IMG/VR virus record: IMGVR_UViG_2923307698_000002
Coordinates: 1 to 55,083 of that record
Origin: a virus
Taxonomy: Duplodnaviria; Heunggongvirae; Uroviricota; Caudoviricetes
Strand: one strand, 5' to 3'
Length of the DNA: 55,083 nt
The first letter of the stretch is position 1; each line of letters begins with the position of its first letter. The notes below the pieces were generated by a model that saw only the letters and a list, made by a program, of their open reading frames with translations, was not told where the DNA came from and made no database searches. Made by a program: the position numbers and the translations under genes. This document shows, in pieces, positions 1 through 17,901 of this stretch.

Positions 1-927
1 TCAGCTTTTCGCCAGAACGGTGACGGCCTTATCGAGTTTTTGCCATCCGCAATAGGTGATTGCCCTGAACGCTGTAGCGTCATTCTGGAAAAGGCTAACC
101 GTCCCTGATTCGGTTTTTATTACCGCCTCATCAGTTGGGGTTATAACTGTGGCTTCAACGTTAATAATCAGCTTTTGAGCGTCTATCAGCATCATGCGAT
201 CCGCCTGTTCGCTCACAATTACCGGTATTCTCAAAAGCTCTATCTGCCAGAACTCAGCATCAGTAAGCTGTAAGGCGTTTTCTACGGGCAAGATTAGCGA
301 CGACGTGGCAAGCGTGTTACCGTTCGCTATGTGCTTTTTGAAAAGCTCTATGAAGTTTTCGGCCTCATCAGCACCATTAAGCACGCCCTCAGGGGATACG
401 CCCGCCACCTCCTGGTCACTGGAAAGAAATTTTTTATCTATTTCTTTCACCGATTCCGATGTGATCAAGTCTCTGATCGCTGAATTGGTACAAGGGGTGC
501 TAAATTTGATTAGCTCGTTATTCAGCATCACAATAGCGCCAAGTTTGCACAGTTTTAGCGCACTTTCGTTTACTTCTCCCTCTTTGACAGGGATTTCTTC
601 GGCTTCTTTAAGCCATTTACTACCCTTGCCTGATATTGACTGCAATTTTGCGCCAAACGGAAGATTCAGCGCGCTGCTGATTAGCTTGCCTGGTACAGAC
701 TGCGAAAAAATATACTCGCCAAGCTCTCTTACTATCGGCTCTGCCACCAGCGACGGCATATTATCCGTAGTCATTCCGGCAACAATGGATTTTTCAAGAA
801 ATTTCGATACTGCCGGATCATTTTTTTTCGTCATTTCAATTGCGTCTGCATGGCTGAATTTACACGATGTAAGCACGCTGGCGGCGCGAACTGCCGACAC
901 GCCTTTCATGTTTTTAGAAATCATCAT
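1..927 (-). CDS. phage major capsid-like protein (HK97 fold family), satellite-encoded
   Basis: Complete 308-aa ORF; AGGAGG 6 nt upstream of ATG at 927; C-terminal region resembles HK97-family capsid C-terminus by eye; lies directly downstream of terS with no terL or portal between. Confidence 0.5.
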   Translation of the reverse strand: MMISKNMKGVSAVRAASVLTSCKFSHADAIEMTKKNDPAVSKFLEKSIVAGMTTDNMPSLVAEPIVRELGEYIFSQSVPGKLISSALNLPFGAKLQSISGKGSKWLKEAEEIPVKEGEVNESALKLCKLGAIVMLNNELIKFSTPCTNSAIRDLITSESVKEIDKKFLSSDQEVAGVSPEGVLNGADEAENFIELFKKHIANGNTLATSSLILPVENALQLTDAEFWQIELLRIPVIVSEQADRMMLIDAQKLIINVEATVITPTDEAVIKTESGTVSLFQNDATAFRAITYCGWQKLDKAVTVLAKS

Positions 928-1086
928 CTTCTTCCTCCTGGTAACATGGGGTTAGGGTTTCGTGAAAATATGGCATCAGAACAGCGGCAGCCTGTAACCG
1001 TATTTCTGTTGGCTGCTGCTTGTCGTTCATGATTTCCGTGAGTACATCAATAGGGTCTGTGATGTATTCGCTCATAGTTCGCTACC

Positions 1087-1575
1087 TCAGTGTTTTAAGC
1101 CAGTTGGTGGCTTAGGGATGGGGAACCGATTTGAGGAGACATTAGCGGCATTGAGTTTTTTAACCTCTTTTTTCCCAATGCTGCCGATCTTGCGGTGGGT
1201 GAACTGGGCCAGCTTAAACGCGGCATCTAAAGCCAGTTTTTGATCTGTGTCCATGTTGTCAATCAGTATCCTGCCCATTGCTTTGATGGGGTCGGGTAGG
1301 CCGTTATCCATCATCTCAATGGTGTTAATTGATGCCCGTTCCGGTGTAACTTTTTCGGTAACTTTCTTTGTAACTTTTTTCGGTTTTGTAACCTGAAAAG
1401 TTACATCAGAAGTTACAGCCTTAAGATACTTTTTCACCTCCGGATCATTGGATAGCTGCCAGCCTTTAACCCTTGCAGTCTTTTCGCTGTATCCCGCATG
1501 TATCGCGGCTTCCGTTGGATTTGTGCCCTTTGATAACGCATCAGCAAACCGCTTTTTTTTGGTCGTTAATGCCAT
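1087..1575 (-). CDS. terminase small subunit (P27-like family)
   Basis: Start placed at internal ATG 1575 (MALTTKKKRFADALSKG...) with GAGG RBS; the ORF track extends to 1713 but the upstream part lacks an RBS; N-terminal HTH-like motif typical of P27-type TerS. Confidence 0.75.
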   Translation of the reverse strand: MALTTKKKRFADALSKGTNPTEAAIHAGYSEKTARVKGWQLSNDPEVKKYLKAVTSDVTFQVTKPKKVTKKVTEKVTPERASINTIEMMDNGLPDPIKAMGRILIDNMDTDQKLALDAAFKLAQFTHRKIGSIGKKEVKKLNAANVSSNRFPIPKPPTGLKH

Positions 1576-1702
1576 GCAAAAACCTCGTTTTGAGGGGGTG
1601 TAACTTTTCGTGTAACTTTTTTGAAAAGCAAAATTTTCTATGAATGAGACGGGGGGCGGTGTCCAGGGCGATCGACTTTCCGGCCGGAACACTCCCCCCC
1701 TG

Positions 1703-1864
1703 TCATTGCTCACCGAGTAACGAGATCAGGCCTTCAACTTCATCACTCAGCTTGTTTATTCGTGTCTCAAGCTCTGCGATCTTTTCCATCAATGGCGCTA
1801 TGGTGTCTCTTGTTTCCTCGCCAATGGCTTTAATGATGCTTGCCTCGCGTTCTGTGATAGCCAT
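1703..1864 (-). CDS. small coiled-coil hypothetical protein (53 aa)
   Basis: ORF below the 60-aa track cutoff, found by hand translation (MAITEREASIIKAIGEE...); ATG lies 3 nt after the upstream gene stop (TAAACAATG), suggesting coupling. Confidence 0.3.
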   Translation of the reverse strand: MAITEREASIIKAIGEETRDTIAPLMEKIAELETRINKLSDEVEGLISLLGEQ

Positions 1865-1867
1865 TGT

Positions 1868-2062
1868 TTACGCCTCACTTGTTGCAATGCCCAGGCGTTC
1901 GCGTAACAGTACGCGCGCAAGATGCCCTATTGTTGGTGTTGCCGCCCTGCCGTAGATACCTGATTCATTCATCCGGCGCACAATATCGAACTGCAACTTT
2001 TTAAGCTCGTTAAGGATTTCATGATCAATCATCACGGTAGCGCTTTGCTTTATCTCTTCCAC
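1868..2062 (-). CDS. hypothetical protein (64 aa)
   Basis: GTG start at 2062 preceded by AGGAGA at 7 nt; sits between replication and packaging modules. Confidence 0.4.
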   Translation of the reverse strand: MEEIKQSATVMIDHEILNELKKLQFDIVRRMNESGIYGRAATPTIGHLARVLLRERLGIATSEA

Positions 2063-2149
2063 TTTGTTTTCTCCTGATACTTATCATTGCATAACCAGTA
2101 TTTTCGATAGATTATCATTAATTAACCATCTTTGAAGATATATGAGATC

Positions 2150-2175
2150 GAAAAAAAGCCGGATTGCTCCGGCTA
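2150..2175 (-). terminator. rho-independent terminator after rep operon
   Basis: Hairpin GCCGG-attgct-CCGGC followed by T-run on the minus strand, downstream of the 81-aa gene. Confidence 0.45.
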
Positions 2176-2192
2176 TGTGCTCACTTCTTCGG

Positions 2193-2438
2193 TTATTCTC
2201 CAGCGCTTTTAACGTTGATGGTTGTTACCTGTTCCGCTTCGGCAATCTCCCGTTCTGTCAGCGTGGCAAAGTTTGCCGCCGCGGTGGTCATGAATGCGCT
2301 TATCAGTTCGGGATGCTCCTTCGCGTATCCTTCCCCCGCGTGGCGGTCTATCGTTCTGATTGCCACCTTTAAGGAAAGCTCTGTCATGTCTAACGCTTTA
2401 TATTTTGGCGCTGTCTTATCTCTGGTTTTTCTGTTCAT
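2193..2438 (-). CDS. hypothetical protein (81 aa), last gene of rep operon
   Basis: ORF immediately downstream of the iteron array; start uncertain (ATG 2438 or internal ATG 2387). Confidence 0.4.
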   Translation of the reverse strand: MNRKTRDKTAPKYKALDMTELSLKVAIRTIDRHAGEGYAKEHPELISAFMTTAAANFATLTEREIAEAEQVTTINVKSAGE

Positions 2439-2640
2439 TCCCCACTACTCCCCACTTTTGCTCCCCACTTTTTGAAATTACCCACCGTCTCCCCACCTCT
2501 TTTTTTTGTGATTCTAACGTTATGTTTTTCAATATGTTTTTTACTCCCCACTTTTTTGGGTATATACAGGTGGGAAAGTGGGTAATTATGTTTCAATTTT
2601 GTTAAATTCCCCACTCCCCCCACTTTTACTCCCCACTTTT
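2439..2640. repeat. iteron array, putative satellite replication origin
   Basis: At least 7 copies of TCCCCACT(TTT) in direct orientation plus an inverted copy (aggtgggaaagtggg) and an AT-rich tract, immediately 3' of the rep stop codon. Confidence 0.6.
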
Positions 2641-4040
2641 TACAGCGGGCGCACGTCATCACCGTCAATAACGATTACGCCATCATTTTCCAGCTTGTAC
2701 AGCCAGCGCCGGAAGTGCTTCATCTCATACCCCAGCTTTTTCATATCGTCGCGGAGAAGGGCGATAGTGCACGCCTCCCCGTGTGCTGTTCGTGTTCTGA
2801 TGCACTGCCATAGCGCGGCGTGATTCTCCGTCTTGTTCCCTGCCTCCTCGATGCGCTCCAGTTCAACGGGAGGGCGCGGCTTATCCACCACCACCAGCGA
2901 CGTGATTAACTCCCCGTCAGCGTCGGTAAAAAGCTCCACCACGCGTAAGTCATATGCTGCTTCTTTGAGTTCCTCCGCGTCCTTCATTTTGGTACATGAG
3001 ATAACCAGCGCTTCGCTGCCTGCGTCCTCCCTGCGTATCCGGTATTCGGCGTCCAGTGATGCACGAAATGCACTGGAACCACGCGCCCCCTTTGTTTCAT
3101 CCTTGCCGGAATGGTGAACCACCAGCACCGTTGCCCCTGTGCGCCGTTTCAGTTCGTCACACCCACGGATAAACGCCCCCATATCACGGGAATCATTTTC
3201 ATCATTGCCGCCAAAGCAGCGCGCCAGCGTATCCAGAATAATCATTCGAACCGGTTTACCCGTTTCCCGTTCCACCTGACGGGCAGCGATAACCATTTCC
3301 TCAACATCAAGCGGGGCAGCCGGAAAGATGGGACGGTTTACCAGATACAGATTTTTCACCTGCTCACCGTGCACAACCTCCCAGGCTTTTACACGACGCG
3401 GAACGCCGATACCGCCTTCACCAACCACATAGAGAACAGCGCCATGCGCCACCCTGCGGCCTCCCCACTGGCGGCCCGTGGAAACGTGACACGCCCACGA
3501 ACCCGCAAGGAACGATTTATATGAACCGCTCGCCCCGTATATGCTGCACAGCGATACCGCCGGAATAATCCCCTTAACCACGTAATCAAGTTGTGTGTCG
3601 TATCCGGCAGATCCCACGCTCATTGGTAGCGTGGTTTTTCGCTGGTGGTGTTTTTCTTCCCCTGGCTTTTTCCCCCGCTCCCGTTCCAGATATTCGCGCC
3701 AGTTCTCCCGCTTCTGGCTGTGCATCCCTTCGGGGTAATAATTCGCATCAGTTACACCCGCCGCCGCCAGCTTGTGCGCAATGGCATTAATATTTGATGG
3801 CCTGATGTGGCCTGCCTTGTACAGCCGGACACAATAGCGCCCCTCGTCGATGATTCTCAGGTCTGCCAGTTCATCCAGTTGATCATCAGCCAGCACAACG
3901 GGAGGCACATTATCGCCAGCCAGTCGCCCGTCCTGTTCCTGCCACTGTTTCGCATGTGCCCAGGCATCACTACCCGCAAAAATAATGACTTCGGTCATCT
4001 TGTCGTAAGGCTGTTTTTTTAAGTTCGGTGCGCTTTTCAT
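2640..4040 (-). CDS. replication initiator/helicase, RecA-like P-loop ATPase
   Basis: 466 aa; Walker A YGASGSYKS and Walker B-like MIILD; ATGA overlap with upstream gene; iterons directly downstream. Confidence 0.75.
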   Translation of the reverse strand: MKSAPNLKKQPYDKMTEVIIFAGSDAWAHAKQWQEQDGRLAGDNVPPVVLADDQLDELADLRIIDEGRYCVRLYKAGHIRPSNINAIAHKLAAAGVTDANYYPEGMHSQKRENWREYLERERGKKPGEEKHHQRKTTLPMSVGSAGYDTQLDYVVKGIIPAVSLCSIYGASGSYKSFLAGSWACHVSTGRQWGGRRVAHGAVLYVVGEGGIGVPRRVKAWEVVHGEQVKNLYLVNRPIFPAAPLDVEEMVIAARQVERETGKPVRMIILDTLARCFGGNDENDSRDMGAFIRGCDELKRRTGATVLVVHHSGKDETKGARGSSAFRASLDAEYRIRREDAGSEALVISCTKMKDAEELKEAAYDLRVVELFTDADGELITSLVVVDKPRPPVELERIEEAGNKTENHAALWQCIRTRTAHGEACTIALLRDDMKKLGYEMKHFRRWLYKLENDGVIVIDGDDVRPL

Positions 4041-4336
4041 TTCTTGCCCCTGAATCCGTTAATCATGGTTTTCAGCTTCTGGATGTTTGCCCGTGCCCTG
4101 GCGTTGCTGGTGGGCACGTTATGCGGCGCGGTCTGTACCAGAGAAAAATCACGCCGGAACTGATAAACAGGCATCACGCAATCATATTCGTAACCTTCAC
4201 GGCGGTAAGTTACGCACCGTCCCGCCACGCCCTTAATCATTACCGTGCCGCCGTACTGGTCGCGGTAAATATCACCGCGCGTAAATTTAGGGTGAGTGTT
4301 GCCACTGGCAGTTAAGCCAGAATATTTAAGTTTCAT
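4037..4336 (-). CDS. hypothetical protein (99 aa)
   Basis: Stop overlaps rep start (ATGA); part of minus-strand operon. Confidence 0.4.
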   Translation of the reverse strand: MKLKYSGLTASGNTHPKFTRGDIYRDQYGGTVMIKGVAGRCVTYRREGYEYDCVMPVYQFRRDFSLVQTAPHNVPTSNARARANIQKLKTMINGFRGKK

Positions 4337-4341
4337 TATTT

Positions 4342-4575
4342 TTATTCTCCGGTGTGCTGTTCGTTATATCTGTCGTGCAATAGATCTATTTCTTGCAGTT
4401 CCATTATTACAGGCTCAAGAAGCGTTATTAATGCTGTGGCAATTCTTGATTTTTGTTTGTCGCGTTCATTGTCGCCAAGTGTTTCAAGCCATATGCGCAA
4501 TATTTCGTACATACCTTCAGCGTAAGCAAGGGCACTAAATGCGCGGTCTATTGTTTCGTGGTAAATATCACGCAT
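4342..4575 (-). CDS. hypothetical protein (77 aa)
   Basis: ORF in tight operon arrangement. Confidence 0.4.
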   Translation of the reverse strand: MRDIYHETIDRAFSALAYAEGMYEILRIWLETLGDNERDKQKSRIATALITLLEPVIMELQEIDLLHDRYNEQHTGE

Positions 4576-4576
4576 A

Positions 4577-4798
4577 TTAATCCCCGTCCGTTGTTTTTCT
4601 TAAAACAGCTTCTGTCACGAAATCAGCATAGTTAGCGGCAATATCAAGAATATTTAGCCCTGTATCTCTGTGCTCATCAGTGCAAAGAAAGAAAAAAGCC
4701 ACCCGCATAATTTCAGATATTGACGAAAGCGCATCAGCCGCATCATCAGGAACGCCGGAAAATTCTTGTTTCAGGGAATTAAAACGATCATCACGCAT
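4577..4798 (-). CDS. hypothetical protein (73 aa)
   Basis: ATG at 4798 is 2 nt downstream of a G8 homopolymer on the coding strand. Confidence 0.35.
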   Translation of the reverse strand: MRDDRFNSLKQEFSGVPDDAADALSSISEIMRVAFFFLCTDEHRDTGLNILDIAANYADFVTEAVLRKTTDGD

Positions 4799-5013
4799 AA
4801 CCCCCCCCCATTTTCACAATCAGCAACAAGAATATTTTTAGCGTCATTCAGCGACCGCGTTGCGATGTATCGGATACATTCCAGGGCGAACTGTGTCCGG
4901 TCTTTCTGTTCTTCTCCCTGCGCAAGCTCTGCAGTGCATTCAATATCGATAAGCGCGTGCATCAGCGTAGTGAGCGCGGCGGCTGCTGCGTCCGGTGTGG
5001 TTTTATTGCACAT
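4771..5013 (-). CDS. hypothetical protein (80 aa)
   Basis: Start placed at ATG 5013 with AGGAGG at 6-7 nt; 3' end overlaps the next gene across the G8 tract. Confidence 0.35.
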   Translation of the reverse strand: MCNKTTPDAAAAALTTLMHALIDIECTAELAQGEEQKDRTQFALECIRYIATRSLNDAKNILVADCENGGGLCVMIVLIP

Positions 5014-5203
5014 GGCACACCTCCTGACGAATACGGGCGGCGAATACAGCAACACAACCGGACGGGCAACGGCTACGCGCTTCGCGTTCCGTCCAGGCGG
5101 TTACGTGGATGATTTGAGATTCTCCGGCACTCAGTGCCAGAAAACGCCACACAAAGGCCGTTTGTGTGTGTACAAGGTGTGGTATATGATTTACGGCAAC
5201 CAT
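5003..5203 (-). CDS. hypothetical protein (66 aa), first gene of leftward operon
   Basis: ATG 5203 with AGGAG at 5 nt. Confidence 0.3.
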   Translation of the reverse strand: MVAVNHIPHLVHTQTAFVWRFLALSAGESQIIHVTAWTEREARSRCPSGCVAVFAARIRQEVCHVQ

Positions 5204-5387
5204 AACGGCTCCTAGTTTACGTTGTTGGTTAGACGCCCCGTATGTGTTCCCGCACTGCGGGGTGTTGTTATTTGGTGCATCGCACCATCTGTTTTTAACC
5301 TATCAGCAAGTGAATCGCACTTCAAGCCTTTTTCTCTGAATTTTTTTTGTGTATACTGAATCGCACCAACTTAGAGAGGATTCTGTA
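5204..5387. promoter_or_regulatory. divergent promoter/operator region of the satellite
   Basis: Three copies of TG(A/C)ATCGCAC at 5279-5285, 5314-5320 and 5360-5366; palindrome CCGCAcTGCGG near 5251; TATACT -10-like element; between divergent operons. Confidence 0.45.
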
Positions 5388-5567
5388 ATGGCAACAGGTT
5401 CAACAAATAATAAGTCGCAACAGTTAAATGCCAGATTCCCGCATGATGTTGTTGCAGACTTAGAAAAAAATTTAGATGAAGGTGAAAGCAAAGCGCAATT
5501 TATAGTTACTGCCGTTAAAGGCGAAATCAAACGCCGCCAGCGCCGCAAGGCCAAAGAGCAGGAGTAA
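5388..5567 (+). CDS. ribbon-helix-helix (CopG-like) regulator
   Basis: ATG 5388 after AGAGAGGA; N-terminal beta-strand/helix pattern (QQLNARFPHDVVADLEK...AQFIVTAVKGEI) typical of RHH proteins; basic C-tail. Confidence 0.5.
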   Translation: MATGSTNNKSQQLNARFPHDVVADLEKNLDEGESKAQFIVTAVKGEIKRRQRRKAKEQE

Positions 5568-5609
5568 CCATCACCAGCGCCGTGGTGTGAGGTACTACGG
5601 CGCATTGCT

Positions 5610-5798
5610 ATGCAGGACAACACAATGACCGATAAAGAATTGACCAAAACATTATCACCGGCACGGAAAAGACGGCGCAGAAAGATAGAGCATGAATCAG
5701 AAAGATTCGCACCATGTGCTTTTGCCCTTGAGCAATTCCTTAAAGAGTACAGGGAAAAGCGCTCATTGCAGGTATGGCAACGAACTGAACCAGACTGA
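5610..5798 (+). CDS. hypothetical basic protein (62 aa)
   Basis: ORF downstream of the RHH gene; start may be the internal ATG at 5625. Confidence 0.3.
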   Translation: MQDNTMTDKELTKTLSPARKRRRRKIEHESERFAPCAFALEQFLKEYREKRSLQVWQRTEPD

Positions 5799-5885
5799 TT
5801 GCATTGCCCACCAGCCTGATAGCGGCTATCATCCCCGTGCTTATGTTTGGGATCACATACACATAAGGCGCAGCGGGTTAATTGT

Positions 5886-5912
5886 TCAGAAAGGCGGCTC
5901 CATATCGGGGCC
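5886..5912 (+). terminator. rho-independent terminator
   Basis: GC hairpin (gcggctcc...ggggccgc) followed by T6; lies between convergent genes. Confidence 0.4.
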
Positions 5913-5946
5913 GCTTTTTTCGTGTTTGTCATATCTGTGATACCCG

Positions 5947-6153
5947 TTAAGCAGCCGTTCCGCGTGCTTCCTCTTCGCGTTCTTTCTGCCAGGACAACAC
6001 ATCATCCTCATACCATCCGCGACGGCGTAAACCAACGCGAAAACCCTGCGGAAATTCTCCGGCGTTGATCATGCTTTGCAGCGTGCTGTCTGCCTTGATG
6101 TGGATAATTTTTTTTACTTCCTGGCGAAAGATAATTTTTCTGATTGCTTCCAT
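5947..6153 (-). CDS. alpA: AlpA-family transcriptional regulator/excision activator
   Basis: 68 aa; pattern IIRQ-EV...L...AGEFP...G.RR.GW.EDDV..W matches AlpA/Vis-type MerR-like HTH as recalled. Confidence 0.7.
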   Translation of the reverse strand: MEAIRKIIFRQEVKKIIHIKADSTLQSMINAGEFPQGFRVGLRRRGWYEDDVLSWQKEREEEARGTAA

Positions 6154-6282
6154 CGTGATTTACCTTGTGAATCCGGTGTATTCCGGTGACAAATACGGTA
6201 AATCATCGGATATGGGTAAAAACAGTTCCCACCGTTTTTAAACGGTATACACCGTTTTTTATATTGATGATTTGAAATGGAA

Positions 6283-6310
6283 TTATAAAAAAAGCGGCAT
6301 TTCTGCCGCT
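6283..6310 (-). terminator. rho-independent terminator
   Basis: 7-bp stem AGCGGCA/TGCCGCT with T-run on the minus strand, downstream of the 83-aa gene. Confidence 0.45.
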
Positions 6311-6320
6311 TCCAGGATTG

Positions 6321-6572
6321 TTACCGCCATTTTTTGGGCCTGCCTCCGATCTTCATAGATGCCGGACGTACGACCTTATCAATACTTACCGCCAGATTTC
6401 TGGAAGCGCCACGGGATACCAGAAAATCTACTACCTGTTTTTTTGATGGGGCCGTCGTTCTGTCCTCCGGATCGTAGGTTGACCAAAATTCATGCTGAAC
6501 CATCAGGGCCAGTTGCAGCCCGTCGCAATTGCATCTGATATTTTTTTGCATCTTAACGGTTTCATGTTTCAC
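6321..6572 (-). CDS. hypothetical protein (83 aa)
   Basis: ORF between alpA and int; basic C-terminus. Confidence 0.4.
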   Translation of the reverse strand: MKHETVKMQKNIRCNCDGLQLALMVQHEFWSTYDPEDRTTAPSKKQVVDFLVSRGASRNLAVSIDKVVRPASMKIGGRPKKWR

Positions 6573-6649
6573 GGCCTTGTCGTTAAATTTGATGCAATTA
6601 TACGACGGTTTTACATGGTTTTCGTAGTTTTTACTGGTTTTCTGTACAG

Positions 6650-7891
6650 CTACACGGCTCGGATACCCCTTTTACCACTGGCGAGGGTTACGCCCGTCGC
6701 CGCAGCCTCGACAAATTCGCCCCACCAGCGCATCAGCACGATGCGTTTTTCTATGTAGTTGCTCCGGTTGTATGCCCGTCTAACTTCGTTGGTGTCGACG
6801 TGGGCAAGTGCCGCCTCTATTACGTCCGGCTCGAATCCTTCCTCGTTCGCTGCTGTGCTGAATATGGCGCGTAATCCATGAGACACCAGCACGCCAGCGA
6901 ATCCCATACGCCGCAATGCTGCGTTAGCTGTCTGGCTGTTCATCGGCTGCTGTGGGTCTTTCAGACTTGGGAAAACGTAATTGCGGTGGTGGCTGATTGG
7001 TTTCATGGCCTCCAGCACCGCCATAGCCTGACCGGAAAGCGGGATAACGTGATCCCTGCGCATCTTCATGCGTCCGGCAGGTATCGTCCATTGCTTCGCG
7101 TCCAGGTTGATTTCATCCCACCGCGTTGATGACGCTTCGGCGGGACGGGTTACGGTCAGTAACTGCCATTCAATCAGTAATCTGGTCTGCCGTTCTGTTG
7201 CCGATACTGATAAAGCCTGCATAAGCTCGGGCAGCTGTTCGGGGCGGATTGTTGGCATATGTTTTTTTACAGGTGAGGGAAACGCCTTACGCACATTCAT
7301 AGCCGGATTGGCATCAATCAGCCCACTGTTGGCGGCGTAATCCATTACCTCATTAACGCGCTGTAAAACCCGCTTGAGTGTTTCCAGGTTGCCGCGCTCC
7401 TTGATGGGGGTAAGCACTTCAACGAACCTTCGGGCGGTGAGGGTATCTATTGGCGTGTTGCCGATGAACGGGAATACATATTTATCCAGCGAACGCCAGA
7501 TGTCTTTAATCGTGTTGGGGGCCAGATTCTGGCTGATTTTCACCTGGTACCATGCCGCCGCCACATTTTCGAACGTGTTCCCTTGTCTTCGGGCCTCTGT
7601 CTCTCTTTTTTGCCTCTCGTGGTCCTGTGGGTCAGTTCCGGCACTGATTAACGTCCTGTACTCGCTACGGCGTTTTCTGGCATCAGCCAGGGAAACATCT
7701 TCAAGCGATCCAAAACTCAGCAATATTCTTTTTTTGTCCGATGGTCGGTAGTAGGAAAATCTCCAGAGTTTTGATCCAGACGGTTTGACCAGGAGAAAAA
7801 GCCCTCCGCCGTCCTGCAGGGTGTACTCCTTTTGCGCTGGTCTGGCTGCTTTGATCTGCACTGTGGTTAATGGGTGTGTTTTTCTCGCCAT
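6650..7891 (-). CDS. int: tyrosine integrase, P4-like
   Basis: ATG at 7891 (MARKTHPLT...); N-terminal arm-binding-like domain and C-terminal catalytic domain with conserved R...H.LR...Y pattern; adjacent to tRNA fragment. Confidence 0.9.
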   Translation of the reverse strand: MARKTHPLTTVQIKAARPAQKEYTLQDGGGLFLLVKPSGSKLWRFSYYRPSDKKRILLSFGSLEDVSLADARKRRSEYRTLISAGTDPQDHERQKRETEARRQGNTFENVAAAWYQVKISQNLAPNTIKDIWRSLDKYVFPFIGNTPIDTLTARRFVEVLTPIKERGNLETLKRVLQRVNEVMDYAANSGLIDANPAMNVRKAFPSPVKKHMPTIRPEQLPELMQALSVSATERQTRLLIEWQLLTVTRPAEASSTRWDEINLDAKQWTIPAGRMKMRRDHVIPLSGQAMAVLEAMKPISHHRNYVFPSLKDPQQPMNSQTANAALRRMGFAGVLVSHGLRAIFSTAANEEGFEPDVIEAALAHVDTNEVRRAYNRSNYIEKRIVLMRWWGEFVEAAATGVTLASGKRGIRAV

Positions 7892-7925
7892 ATGTCTATG
7901 ATTCCACACGAAAAAACAGGGTTTT

Positions 7926-7975
7926 AGTTATACGGCTTTAGTTATACGCCAGCCCGTATAACTAAACGTATAACT
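7926..7975. promoter_or_regulatory. putative integrase arm-type binding sites
   Basis: Four copies of a 9-bp motif: AGTTATACG at 7926-7934 and 7940-7948, inverted CGTATAACT at 7955-7963 and 7967-7975, between int start and the att core. Confidence 0.4.
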
Positions 7976-8109
7976 AAAAAATCCGGCTGATAGCTTATAA
8001 ATCCGGTGATGTTCGGTGACTAAAAAACATAAAAAAACCCGCCAATCAAGTGATTAGCGGGTTATCCCTGTCTTATCCGGTGCTTTCCGGTGATATCCGG
8101 TGGGCGATT

Positions 8110-8155
8110 TGGTCGGCACGAGAGGATTTGAACCTCCGACCCCCGACACCCCATG
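8110..8155 (-). other. attachment-site core: 3' 46 nt of tRNA-Pro(GGG)-like gene (partial tRNA, no 5' half)
   Basis: Minus strand reads CATGGGGTGTCGGGGGTCGGAGGTTCAAATCCTCTCGTGCCGACCA: anticodon loop with GGG, variable loop, T-arm GGAGG/TTCAAAT/CCTCT, acceptor and CCA; upstream sequence cannot form acceptor or D arms. Confidence 0.65.
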
Positions 8156-8370
8156 TCACCGCGCCTGAAACGCTGGAGACCGCGCCATTGCTGGGCTGGC
8201 AGGGTGTTTCACTGTGTGCGCAAACAGTGCATAATTCGCAAAATTCACGCTATATACATCAATGAGTTAAGAGAGATTTTTCCCCACTCCTAAATGGTCA
8301 GTTTTTGGAGCATTACTATATTAATAGGTTCCGTCTATAGCACTTTTTGATTTGCTTCTAATATGCTTTT

Positions 8371-8593: not shown

Positions 8594-9361
8594 ATGCCAC
8601 AGCCGGCGCTAAAAGCGAACGAAATCAGCAGTGAATTAATCGATATTCTTGCGGCTCGGAATACGATATCCGAAATGCAATATTTTCGTTATATCAGAGA
8701 TATAGAAAAGTTGCGCGACAGCGCATCTGAGGACTATCTCAAAGCGTTGGCTAATGGTGCTTTTGGGCGTAAAGATACTGCAGTTGCATTCTTTGAAGAA
8801 GCATTGAAGCATAACAACCTGATCATTGCTCAAAATTATGTAGTTTATCTCAACGATTACGGCAGCTTCCGTGAAGTTGAACAAGTGGTAAATCGATTAG
8901 TTGAACGTTATAACTCCCCTACGATGCTGTCCCATGCATGGGAAGCTAACTTGTTCTTGGGGCGTATTGACAAAGCGCTCTACTATGCTGAGAGATTGAT
9001 AAGTATGGTAGATGAAAAGGAGGCTGAATTGGTTAAGCACCTCGCAGCCACAGCACTGGCCCAATCCACGACCTTCAAAAGTGCAACTGGAATTACTGAT
9101 GAAGAACTACAGGATATTGCAAACCGCATAGTGGATATCATGGCTGACCATAAAGTTAGTCCTGTTGCTATGTCTTTCTGCTCTATCCCTGAAGAGCGTA
9201 CGTCATCATATGTCATGGCAGTTAATACTGAAGATTCTGATGTTCTCTCTGATATGAACTTGGATATAGCATTTTCTCTTGCAGAAAATGAAAGTTTGAT
9301 TGGAAAACCCTTCAGCGTATGGTTTGAAGGGCGTTTGGAGGAACCTGCGCGTGCCAGTTAA
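8594..9361 (+). CDS. hypothetical protein (255 aa), first gene of two-gene cargo operon
   Basis: ATG 8594 after AAGGTGA; AT-rich codon usage unlike the flanking phage DNA; no family recognised. Confidence 0.55.
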   Translation: MPQPALKANEISSELIDILAARNTISEMQYFRYIRDIEKLRDSASEDYLKALANGAFGRKDTAVAFFEEALKHNNLIIAQNYVVYLNDYGSFREVEQVVNRLVERYNSPTMLSHAWEANLFLGRIDKALYYAERLISMVDEKEAELVKHLAATALAQSTTFKSATGITDEELQDIANRIVDIMADHKVSPVAMSFCSIPEERTSSYVMAVNTEDSDVLSDMNLDIAFSLAENESLIGKPFSVWFEGRLEEPARAS

Positions 9362-9734
9362 TAGTTCCGATTTTATCGCTTTCGCAAAAGATTGTGAAAA
9401 GCGTAACGACGAAATTGGTTACAGAAACGCTGTCGCACGTGCGTATTATGGTGCTTATCACCACGTACTTCCGTGTTTGACCATGGGGCCGAAAGAAAGT
9501 CACCAAGGCCTCATTGACTATCTTGTTAACGATGCTTGGAAGGGTAACGAACCTTTTGAAAAAAGAGACTTAATTGGTTTGGGGTATGCTCTTCAATCGC
9601 TTAAGGATCAGAGAATAGTTTGTGATTACAGACTTAACGACACTATTACGCCAACCCAATCAAGCACCGCGATTAAGACTGCAGAGAAATTAATCCAGCG
9701 TTGCGCTAATATGACCAAGTCTAAAGCGTCCTAA
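9351..9734 (+). CDS. hypothetical protein (127 aa), possible HEPN-like fold
   Basis: Probable GTG start at 9351 after GGAGG, overlapping the upstream stop; contains R-x6-H (RAYYGAYH); assignment speculative. Confidence 0.45.
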   Translation: MPVNSSDFIAFAKDCEKRNDEIGYRNAVARAYYGAYHHVLPCLTMGPKESHQGLIDYLVNDAWKGNEPFEKRDLIGLGYALQSLKDQRIVCDYRLNDTITPTQSSTAIKTAEKLIQRCANMTKSKAS

Positions 9735-9740
9735 TCCCCA

Positions 9741-9770
9741 AAATTGGCCTCATTTGAGGCCAATTTTATT
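9741..9770 (+). terminator. rho-independent terminator
   Basis: Hairpin TTGGCCTC-attt-GAGGCCAA followed by TTTTATT. Confidence 0.5.
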
Positions 9771-9774
9771 ATGC

Positions 9775-10140
9775 ATTGTATTTAATTTCACCGTGCGGAA
9801 GCATTACCCAATCATATGGTTCCGCGTATAAATTTTCGTTGATTTCGCGTCGCTGTGGGCTATGAGCCCTTGTGGTCTACTCCCTGTTTATCAAACAAAA
9901 TGCAGCTAGTGCGCGTATTTTGTGGAATGTGGGGGCGCAGCTCCATCGTCAAATTATTACACAAGCCTAACGAATCACGGGGCAATGAAAAGTATGGCTA
10001 AGATAGGCAGGTGCGGATACCTCTTTACTGCGTTTGTTATTACGCTCGGTATACGGTGAACGATATACGGGCAGGCAACGTTATCGCGACTGTTATCAAT
10101 AATACGTTTCAGTTTGTCCTCGAACTACATCACAACCGGC
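9775..10140 (-). pseudogene. integrase 3'-end remnant (frameshifted fragment)
   Basis: Nucleotide and translated similarity to the 3' third of the intact int at 11312-11700 (e.g. ...QGLIAHSDAKSTKIYT vs ...QGRMAHSDAKSTKIYT); 1-nt indel and stops; no 5' part. Confidence 0.6.
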
Positions 10141-10217
10141 TTGAAAACTAATTACTGGATTTTGTGCCTCCATAATCATATGATTTAAAATGTTATTTTA
10201 TAAAAAAGGAGTTGTAT

Positions 10218-11174
10218 ATGACCAATTTGTATAAGTTTATGGGAGCGGATATAATTGATAAATTGATGATGGATGAAACACATATAGGAATAAAATTCTC
10301 TCATTTACATGAATATAATGATCCCTATGAGTTTTTCCTTACTATTGATTTTAATCGCGGTTCTGATGAGTTAGCATTTTACAATGAAATGATTGGCATG
10401 GTTACAAAACAACCAGCAACTTGTTTTACGAAAAGCCCTGTGATACCACCTATGTGGGCACATTATGCAGGTAATTCTTCTGGTTTTGTAATAGAGATTA
10501 ATGAGGAGAAGTTTAAAAAGTATTTGGATGAAATCGGCTTCCAGGATCATAGTTCAATAGCAGATGTTGAATATAAAGATTCTCCAGATACAGGTATTGA
10601 AGACATTCTGGCGAGAGCATTTCATATCTGTAAACCTCGTTATATCTACTGGCTACAATCCTGTATAATGACAGCCGCATATTTGACAAAACAAACTTGC
10701 TGGAGTTATGAGCAGGAACGTCGCGTAATAATTAATGAGAAAGCACTTACTAAACTGAATGACAATCTTATGCTCCTTCCGGTACCGATTAATTGTATAA
10801 CTGGAGTTATAGTTGGGCACAAATCAAATGATTTATTAAAGCAGAAAATTCAATCTTTAGCTAAAAAGGCTAAATGTAGATATTTCGAAATGGTAATAGG
10901 AAAAACAACAACTACACCATTTCTTTTATCTCAAAATCTCAAATCACACCAATTTATTAATGGCAATATAATACCTGCATCAAGGCAATGTAAAAAATGT
11001 TATGAGCCTTTAAACATGGAAAATAAAGTTTGTGGCTGGTGTGGAATTACTAATCATGATGTGAAAATGGCAGAGTACCGTAATTCATTTCGAATGATAG
11101 CCAACTATGGTGGGCTGGATAAATATATATCATCCATGAATAAGATTACTGAAGAGTATAATAAGGGTAAATAA
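10218..11174 (+). CDS. DUF2971-like protein with C-terminal zinc ribbon
   Basis: ATG 10218 after AAAGGAG; motifs LYKF...FS...NDPYEF, MWAHYA, WSYEQERR recalled as DUF2971 signature; C-x2-C-x13-C-x2-C at the C-terminus; AT-rich. Confidence 0.55.
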   Translation: MTNLYKFMGADIIDKLMMDETHIGIKFSHLHEYNDPYEFFLTIDFNRGSDELAFYNEMIGMVTKQPATCFTKSPVIPPMWAHYAGNSSGFVIEINEEKFKKYLDEIGFQDHSSIADVEYKDSPDTGIEDILARAFHICKPRYIYWLQSCIMTAAYLTKQTCWSYEQERRVIINEKALTKLNDNLMLLPVPINCITGVIVGHKSNDLLKQKIQSLAKKAKCRYFEMVIGKTTTTPFLLSQNLKSHQFINGNIIPASRQCKKCYEPLNMENKVCGWCGITNHDVKMAEYRNSFRMIANYGGLDKYISSMNKITEEYNKGK

Positions 11175-17542: not shown

Positions 17543-17901
17543 ACAGTTTAACAACACACTACCGTCGCTCGCAACTGATTGCGCTTCCTGTACCGGGTGG
17601 AAAAGCGAAGGTGGAGTATTGCTATGCAGTAAATGTACTAGGTGACAGGGAAATTGTAACCCACAGCTTTGCAGAGTGGGCTGTGGGTGATTTCAACCGG
17701 CAGAAGGAGACAGTCCTTTGCGACAAGTTAACCGCTGGTTCAAAGATCACTACGGAGTGCCCGTCAGAGTCATTCGTTGGGAGCCGGAAACACAACGGGT
17801 TATCTACCTCCGCGAAGGCTATGAGCATGAGTGCTTCAGCCCGCTCGAACAGTTTCGTCGTAAATTCAGGGAAGTAGAGGTCGGTCATGAGCACTAAATT
17901 A
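17539..17901 (+). CDS. hypothetical protein, apparent frameshift near 17700
   Basis: Track ORF 17539-17877 becomes low-complexity after about 17700, while another frame encodes a protein-like tail (...[56 protein letters not shown]) ending at 17901. Confidence 0.3.

Follow-up and report, generated by a model that had tools for sequence, protein, structure and literature searches.

Sequence analysis of an EcCI11128-type phage-inducible chromosomal island with small terminase and capsid-like genes, located next to a lambdoid prophage

The DNA analyzed here (the window) is the stretch of 55,083 nucleotides (nt) of the IMG/VR virus record IMGVR_UViG_2923307698_000002, and the element under study occupies its positions 1-8155. 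An earlier note, made from the letters of the sequence, had described it as a satellite like phage-inducible chromosomal islands (abbreviated PICIs) or P4, parked beside a lambdoid prophage. By sequence comparison, 1-8155 is a variant copy of the catalogued PICI EcCI11128, and the element is therefore already known. The components which the note had listed, namely int, alpA, a RecA-like rep with a 3’ iteron origin, a small terminase gene (terS) and an HK97-type capsid-like gene, are all present. The absence of large terminase (terL), portal and tail genes from the element was confirmed as well: no such genes, and no lysis genes, were found in 1-8155 in the list of open reading frames (ORFs), by Pfam or by PHROG.

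All genes of the island are on the minus strand except for one small ORF on the plus strand. At the right side, a tyrosine integrase with an arm-binding domain is encoded at 6650..7909 (Pfam Phage_integrase, Phage_int_M and Arm-DNA-bind_3; NCBIfam PRK09692, 552 bits). Direct and inverted GTATAACTAAA repeats at 7920..7990, recognized by reading the sequence and by end-versus-end blastn, are probably the arm sites of this integrase, and positions 8110..8155 contain the 3’ 46 nt of a tRNA-Pro gene (proL, minus strand), which was identified by comparison with relatives. The AlpA-like helix-turn-helix regulator of 68 amino acids (aa) is encoded at 5947..6153 and matched phrog_2790 and phrog_66, “excisionase and transcriptional regulator” (E 2.5e-6). 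A RepA-type (AAA_25, RecA-like) helicase of 466 aa corresponds to 2640..4040 (Pfam AAA_25, 148 bits; phrog_2850 over the full length, phrog_906 and phrog_864), and its N-terminal part is similar to a segment of phage primases. The helicase gene is followed directly on its 3’ side by two sets of AGTGGGGA-type iterons, which flank an AT-rich stretch (repeat families D1, D2 and D4, and reading of the sequence), and this region at 2439..2637 (minus strand) is the predicted replication origin. Six of the nine AGTGGGGA copies of the entire 55-kb window are located there, all on the rep strand, while 1.4 copies would be expected by chance in the whole window. The same layout is drawn for the origin of E. 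coli PICIs in Fig. 2a of PMC6092414. The terS gene (1087..1575, 162 aa), a small ORF of 53 aa (914..1075) and the capsid-like (capsid-morphogenesis) gene (1..927, 308 aa) follow toward the left end, where the stop codon of the capsid-like gene makes up the first three bases of the window.

Table S1 of Fillol-Salom et al. (2018, ISME J, PMC6092414) includes EcCI11128 among the PICIs, with the coordinates AP010960.1 2855234-2864550 and a length of 9.3 kb. According to our blastn comparison, the window is 98% identical to it at 1-5024 and 91% identical at 5572-8155, the latter block being the int-alpA side, and the terS-capsid module shows 100% identity across 2.1 kb. Gene order and insertion site (proL, in the yejO/yejM interval) are the same, and the RepA protein of the window copy is also found in relatives. 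The two copies differ in a segment of approximately 0.5 kb at 5.0-5.6 kb, which is swapped, and in their surroundings: EcCI11128 adjoins an intact tRNA gene, while the island in the window stands in tandem with a prophage.

The gene content is also that of a PICI. The SatelliteFinder PICI model has five core components, namely a small terminase, a capsid-morphogenesis gene, an integrase, an AlpA-type regulator and a primase-replicase; the element contains each of them, and none of the components which the model forbids. PICIs have been defined by int, alpA, pri-rep, capsid morphogenesis and terS genes without tail, holin, portal and connector genes (PMC10085698), and the fit of the element to this definition supports its classification as a PICI. 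In line with this, the integrase gene is located at one end of an island which falls in the range of about 8-15 kb and is bounded by attachment (att) repeats; an AlpA-type regulator is combined with transcription in one direction, although its match is weak; a replication protein of its own is followed by an origin with two iteron sets around an AT-rich region; and a small terminase (TerS) and a capsid-morphogenesis gene are present without tail, holin, portal, connector or large terminase (TerL) genes. In one respect the element departs from the description of PICIs, since its att site is also used by a temperate prophage (see below).

The capsid-like protein was analyzed at the levels of sequence and predicted structure. 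It passed the Pfam Phage_capsid cut-off narrowly (28.3 bits versus 24.2) and matched phrog_617 and phrog_10, major head protein. A word-indexed protein search gave three matches only and a search of the sequences of the Protein Data Bank (PDB) chains yielded nothing useful, and for its alignment an exhaustive HMMER search was needed. The 538 relatives which it revealed fall into three classes: free-standing proteins (310-330 aa), capsid proteins extended at the N terminus (440-470 aa) and protease-capsid fusions (630-670 aa). The protein aligns with the C-terminal capsid part of the longer relatives, and the delta/scaffold and protease parts of the 440-670-aa homologues are missing from it. 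The AlphaFold2 model, based on 32 sequences, has a predicted local distance difference test score (pLDDT) of 90.7 and a predicted template modelling score (pTM) of 0.87, and shows the HK97 fold, which is defined by an N-arm, an E-loop and P and A domains. Among the 50 best matches shown by Foldseek against the PDB, all are HK97-fold shell proteins, with E-values down to 1e-12; most are phage capsids, with some encapsulins and a gene-transfer-agent capsid, and entries from SaPI1 and SaPIbov5 (Ccm), two pathogenicity islands of Staphylococcus aureus (SaPIs), are included. As modelled, the capsid-like protein thus has the complete HK97 fold of a shell subunit and lacks a scaffold or protease of its own.

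The small terminase had been taken in the earlier note for a P27-type protein. This family was rejected: the sole Pfam match is Terminase_2 (PF03592, 44 bits), and no NCBIfam match was obtained at E <= 0.01. TerS further matched phrog_641 (E 5e-43), and its mechanically called ORF extends to a GTG at position 1713. It is 46-50% identical to the TerS of PPompW and Shiga toxin-converting (Stx) phages. The identity to the PPompW TerS is distributed unevenly, with approximately 66% at residues 1-47 (the helix-turn-helix part), 61% at residues 86-157 and 13% in the middle. Such conserved ends would be expected if the satellite TerS must still dock onto a PPompW-type terminase. Residues ~56-82 (~1330-1410, minus strand) form a divergent Lys/Thr/Val-rich repeat, KPKKVTKKVTEKVT, which stands in the place of a longer, unrelated linker of the PPompW/Stx phage TerS.

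The 53-aa ORF between terS and the capsid-like gene is annotated as a coding sequence in RefSeq relatives. It resembles the helical middle part of TerS-family proteins (phrog_641 positions 89-126, E 8e-7) and has an acidic tail, EEEDDDF. In a local alignment it fits residues 88-130 of the PICI TerS (shuffle p = 0.005), and tblastn against phages gave 18 matches with weak E-values, 16 of them within genes annotated as terminase small subunit. With BLASTP the ORF could be aligned to neither TerS, so that the likeness is drawn from the profile match, the shuffle-tested local alignment and the weak tblastn matches only. The ORF may encode a TerS mimic or partner which participates in packaging interference, or it may be a relic of an ancestral terS. 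As a conserved ORF corresponding to a TerS fragment, it is an uncharacterized candidate packaging factor.

Which phages could help this island was addressed by tblastn of the satellite proteins against 50,697 phage records. The best matches among E. coli phages of both TerS (46%) and the capsid-like protein (23%) were in the same phages, namely PPompW prophages and many Stx1a-, Stx2a- and Stx2c-converting phages. The head module of these phages consists of a Terminase_2 TerS, a 553-aa PF03354/PF20441 TerL and a 645-aa fusion of an S78 protease to a PF05065 capsid protein; the capsid-like protein aligns to approximately residues 291-633 of the PPompW fusion. Their TerL and capsid families differ from those of the prophage next to the island. 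In addition, the distribution of the satellite in 5426 complete E. coli genomes was determined. The putative hijack module was found in 221 of them, mostly Shiga toxin-producing E. coli (STEC) of the serogroups O111, O26 and O103. All carriers of an evenly spaced sample (11/11), obtained with a chimeric query, also harbor two to five copies of a PPompW-type terL, which is present in about 20% of the non-carriers (1032/5205). Taken together, the protein matches and this distribution suggest that lambdoid phages with a Terminase_2/PF03354-PF20441/S78-PF05065 head module, including PPompW and many Stx1a and Stx2 phages, are the likely helpers.

The prophage in the window starts at position 8156 and extends beyond 55083. 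It encodes an S24-type (SOS-cleavable) CI repressor, a CII protein, a decoration protein and a lambda-like tail, together with a DUF1441 TerS, a GpA-type TerL, a lambda-family portal and a 739-aa ClpP-Phage_capsid_4 head protein. The border between the two elements is exact. In a megablast search of the island against the E. coli genomes, 152 of them matched at least 80% of the query with 97-99% identity, and the match ended at 8155 in every listed one; similarity to the related copies stops inside the 46-nt tRNA-Pro 3’ fragment at 8110-8155. ARAGORN detected no intact tRNA in the window. The att core of the satellite corresponds to 15 nt at 8110-8124, TGGTCGGCACGAGAG, while the whole 46-nt fragment is the left att of the prophage, so that a recombination core of 15 nt in the island stands against one of at least 46 nt in the prophage. 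The intact tRNA-Pro gene lies beyond the window.

The adjacency raised the possibility, favored by the earlier note, that this lambda-like neighbor is the helper which induces and packages the satellite. Its SOS-cleavable repressor and its apparently full head and tail module would suit such a role, and lambda and phi80 help another E. coli PICI, EcCICFT073 (PMC6092414). However, no similarity was detectable between the satellite TerS or capsid-like protein and the DUF1441 TerS or ClpP-Phage_capsid_4 head protein of the neighbor, and its GpA-type TerL contrasts with the PF03354-type TerL with which the phage relatives of the satellite TerS are paired. A cos or pac site in common with the neighbor was considered and rejected: comparison of the island with the rest of the window by blastn and tblastn revealed no common DNA of at least 20 nt, and a search for lambda cosN gave matches at chance level only. 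The prophage also carries an IS3-family insertion. Physical proximity itself is accounted for, on comparison of the loci, by the use of the 3’ end of proL by both elements. In 51 genomes without the island the prophage end abuts yejO directly, 152 genomes carry the satellite without this neighbor, and the island-prophage junction was found in none of the 5426 genomes; either order of insertion yields the arrangement in the window. Altogether, the dissimilar TerS and head proteins and the lack of a common packaging site argue that the neighbor is probably a poor helper candidate for packaging and a co-tenant of the same tRNA gene, and we consider it unlikely that it both induces and packages the island. 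The tandem at proL departs slightly from the published statement that prophages never use the att sites of PICIs (PMC6092414), which is a descriptive generalization and implies no mechanistic requirement.

Another possibility is that the island is a decayed, immobile remnant of a prophage or of a dead island, in which the terS and capsid genes are functionless relics. In its favor, no experimental mobilization of EcCI11128 is reported in the literature found, some relatives contain pseudogenes at 5.0-5.9 kb, and in the window the prophage separates the island from the intact tRNA. On the other hand, the integrase gene, att core, arm repeats and iteron origin of the island are preserved, and the compact gene set is intact in 219 genomes. 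Moreover, comparison of the window with the copy in ZH48 points to purifying selection, with ratios of nonsynonymous to synonymous substitution rates (dN/dS) ranging from 0.03 for rep over 0.13 for the 53-aa ORF and 0.17 for the capsid-like gene to 0.24 for terS. The values for alpA and int were discarded as invalid, because an indel shifts the register. A dead remnant is thus quite improbable.

Since the first bases of the window are the stop codon of the capsid-like gene, the sequence upstream is not seen. Therefore the element could, in principle, be a capsid-forming PICI (cf-PICI), as the earlier note had proposed, or an ordinary prophage, with terL, portal, protease and connector genes located just upstream. 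Its close relatives argue strongly against this. In ZH48, FORC_028 and O111:H- 11128, which are 97-100% identical over the terS-capsid module, the element is inserted between yejO and tRNA-Pro/yejM with the integrase gene beside the tRNA, at most one gene of the element comes after the capsid gene, and yejO follows within 0.47-0.77 kb of the latter. A copy of att is located in between: alignment of occupied and unoccupied sites, among the latter the locus of 65COLEC, in which no PICI is present and the tRNA fragment abuts yejO directly, revealed a degenerate copy of the tRNA 3’ end, ‘TTTGG(TC)CACGAGAG’, with a deletion of 2-4 nt. No exact direct repeat of the tRNA fragment of at least 14 nt exists at the far end of the relatives. 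A GTATAACTAAA repeat pair is found beside this far att and recurs next to the integrase gene, and these repeats resemble the ‘att’ given for EcCI11128 in Table S1 of PMC6092414. Thus the other att repeat, whose search upstream had been proposed, was detected in the relatives in degenerate form, while portal and protease genes were absent before yejO. A full set of phage genes upstream was looked for in the close relatives and was found in none.

In four related E. coli loci, the element extends 0.35-0.65 kb past the capsid gene and ends at yejO. From the position of yejO and of the far att copy, the whole element can be estimated at ~8.8-9.3 kb, of which only 0.35-0.65 kb would be outside the window. 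In the relatives this remainder contains no packaging genes and no structural or lysis genes in addition to those for TerS and the capsid-like protein; one variant has a 93-aa ORF of unassigned function. The cf-PICI genes for TerL, portal, protease, head-tail adaptor and connector are lacking from 1-8155 and, in the relatives, from the region up to yejO. Also in a distant homologue (52% identity) the genes after the capsid-like one are chromosomal, and terS and the capsid gene are separated by a mini-ORF, with no terL or portal gene, in contrast to the order in cf-PICIs (PMC10085698). Judged by its relatives, the element is essentially complete as seen, no packaging module is hidden upstream, and we give hardly any credence to a cf-PICI or an ordinary prophage.

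The markers of P4 are the sid, psu, delta and epsilon hijacking genes and an alpha-type primase-helicase. The P4 part of the earlier classification can be practically discarded: an integrase, an AlpA-like regulator, an Icd-like protein and, in relatives, an ash-family pseudogene occur also in P4-type elements, but neither the P4 hijacking proteins nor a full-length P4-type primase were among the Pfam and PHROG matches of the island ORFs, the replication protein is a 466-aa AAA_25 helicase, and TerS and the capsid homologue are PICI markers.

With good confidence we regard 1-8155 as a nearly whole EcCI11128-type PICI, which would use Stx/PPompW-type phages as helpers and shares its tRNA gene with the neighboring prophage as a co-tenant. 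The following life cycle is proposed by analogy to the characterized PICIs EcCICFT073 and PmCI172 and to SaPIs. A helper phage would switch on the AlpA-controlled leftward operon, Int would use the 15-nt core and arm repeats to excise the island, and replication from the iteron origin would be carried out by the RepA-type helicase. The Terminase_2 TerS of the island would then recognize island DNA and recruit the TerL of the helper, resulting in packaging into particles built and tailed by the helper. The likeliest role of the scaffold-less HK97-fold protein, because of the analogy with Ccm of SaPIbov5 and with PmCI172, is co-assembly with the capsid protein of the helper, which would change the head size and probably result in small heads. 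Induction, packaging partner and redirection of capsid size are inferred.

Several points weigh against this interpretation. The Pfam Phage_AlpA score of the AlpA-like protein is 17.9 bits, under the cut-off of 21 bits. The window stops short of the far end of the element, and its completeness was deduced from relatives with 97-99% identity. Lineage confounds the co-occurrence with PPompW-type terL, since STEC are rich in lambdoid prophages, and 11 genomes were sampled. The neighboring prophage could still serve as inducer, because induction of a PICI needs no common packaging proteins. In EcCICFT073, deletion of the capsid homologue left interference and transfer unchanged (PMC6092414); thus the capsid-like gene need not act in size redirection. 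Last but not least, the literature, including a full-text search, contained no studies of EcCI11128, the name of which appears solely in the supplementary table. Likewise, the literature searched held no experimental study of the TerS-plus-capsid class of E. coli PICIs.

As a tentative and rather doubtful extension of the proposed life cycle, the family of this island may be specialized in parasitizing the Terminase_2/PF03354/S78-capsid lambdoid phages. It would combine a TerS and a 53-aa copy of the TerS core, which interferes with or bridges terminase assembly, with a head-shrinking, scaffold-less capsid homologue, and would thereby lower the yield of Stx phages. If this is true, the island would shape the spread of Stx phages in the O111, O26 and O103 lineages. 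The value of the element as a discovery is small, because the PICI of which it is a variant was already listed in 2018 and because it follows the standard five-gene PICI model. PPompW and Stx-converting phages are nevertheless a concrete candidate helper group, which would link satellites to the biology of Shiga-toxin phages.

The remaining genes of the island are small. Three conserved ORFs are located between the origin and terS (1703-1864, 1868-2062 and 2193-2438, minus strand); they are in the ORF list and annotated in relatives, and the last one matches phrog_1231. To the right of the helicase gene follow, on the same strand, the genes for a DUF4222 protein (4037-4336; Pfam DUF4222, 82 bits), three small early ORFs (4342-4575, 4577-4798 and 4771-5055) with PHROGs without assigned function, and an Icd-like cell-division inhibitor (5003-5203; NCBIfam phage_ICD_like, 64.6 bits). 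The sole gene on the opposite strand, at 5349..5567 (plus strand), encodes a small protein of the YlcI/YnfO family (NCBIfam YlcI_YnfO_N, 62.8 bits). According to the blastn blocks, it sits in the segment at ~5.0-5.6 kb which is variable among the island copies. This segment (~5024-5572), between the Icd-like gene and alpA, is replaced among copies which are otherwise 91-99% identical, and pseudogenes (ash family, hypothetical) are annotated there in relatives. The stretch beyond the capsid gene is also variable, with the 93-aa ORF in ZH48 and 0.35 kb of other sequence in FORC_028 and O111. Both regions look like hot spots for accessory genes. PADLOC detected no defence protein among the small island ORFs tested, and Rfam at gathering thresholds detected no RNA family within the island. 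A promoter scan resulted in 6 promoter-like sites, compared to 10.2 in shuffled sequence, and was not used as evidence.

Several features of the prophage were also recorded. The IS3-family insertion is located in its early region at ~19300-20600, with transposase ORFs at 19332-20219 and 20219-20545 and, at 20148-20264, a frameshift pseudoknot (Rfam ALIL). A PerC-like ORF (18840-19292) is apparently truncated by this insertion, so that the prophage is perhaps not entirely intact. A cargo block of low GC content (8594-11174, plus strand, 34-43% GC) lies between the prophage att and integrase gene and encodes a tetratricopeptide repeat (TPR) protein, a protein of 144 aa and a DUF2971 protein, the last of which matches the PADLOC candidate defence system PDC-S31 (E 4e-22); a second, weak PDC-S31 match is at 53281-53868 (minus strand). 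In the region for tail-fibre assembly, 52538-52736 (plus strand) is a full-length match to the Rfam IS009 RNA (209 bits). The sole protein similarity between island and prophage is a DUF4222-like stretch of 29 aa at 17799-17885 (plus strand; 52% identity, E 1.5e-6).

Among the characterized satellites, PmCI172 of Pasteurella multocida (PMC6092414) is comparable as a PICI of a Gram-negative host which is said to encode a homologue of the major capsid protein and which makes small capsids. It differs in its helper, a Mu-like myovirus, and the role of its capsid homologue was not proven genetically; the likeness is drawn from its description. Ccm of SaPIbov5 (PDB 7rwz, PMC5052747) is a satellite-encoded HK97-fold homologue of the helper capsid protein which redirects capsid size (PMC5052747), and 7rwz was matched by Foldseek with E ~1e-8. 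SaPIbov5 is, however, a Gram-positive, cos-packaged island without TerS, and with 14-15% identity Ccm and the capsid-like protein are alike in fold and proposed role and are not close homologues. EcCICFT073 (PMC6092414, PMC6739421), likewise an E. coli PICI, also has int and alpA genes, a pri-rep gene that is accompanied by an iteron origin, and a putative capsid gene (c1499), but it lacks TerS, retargets the TerS of lambda and phi80 by Rpp, has cos sites and uses full-size heads. Finally, the cf-PICIs such as EcCIEDL933 (PMC10085698) have the left half with int, alpA and pri-rep, as well as a TerS and an HK97-fold capsid protein, in common with the island described here; they differ by encoding in addition their own TerL, portal, protease, head-tail adaptor and connector.

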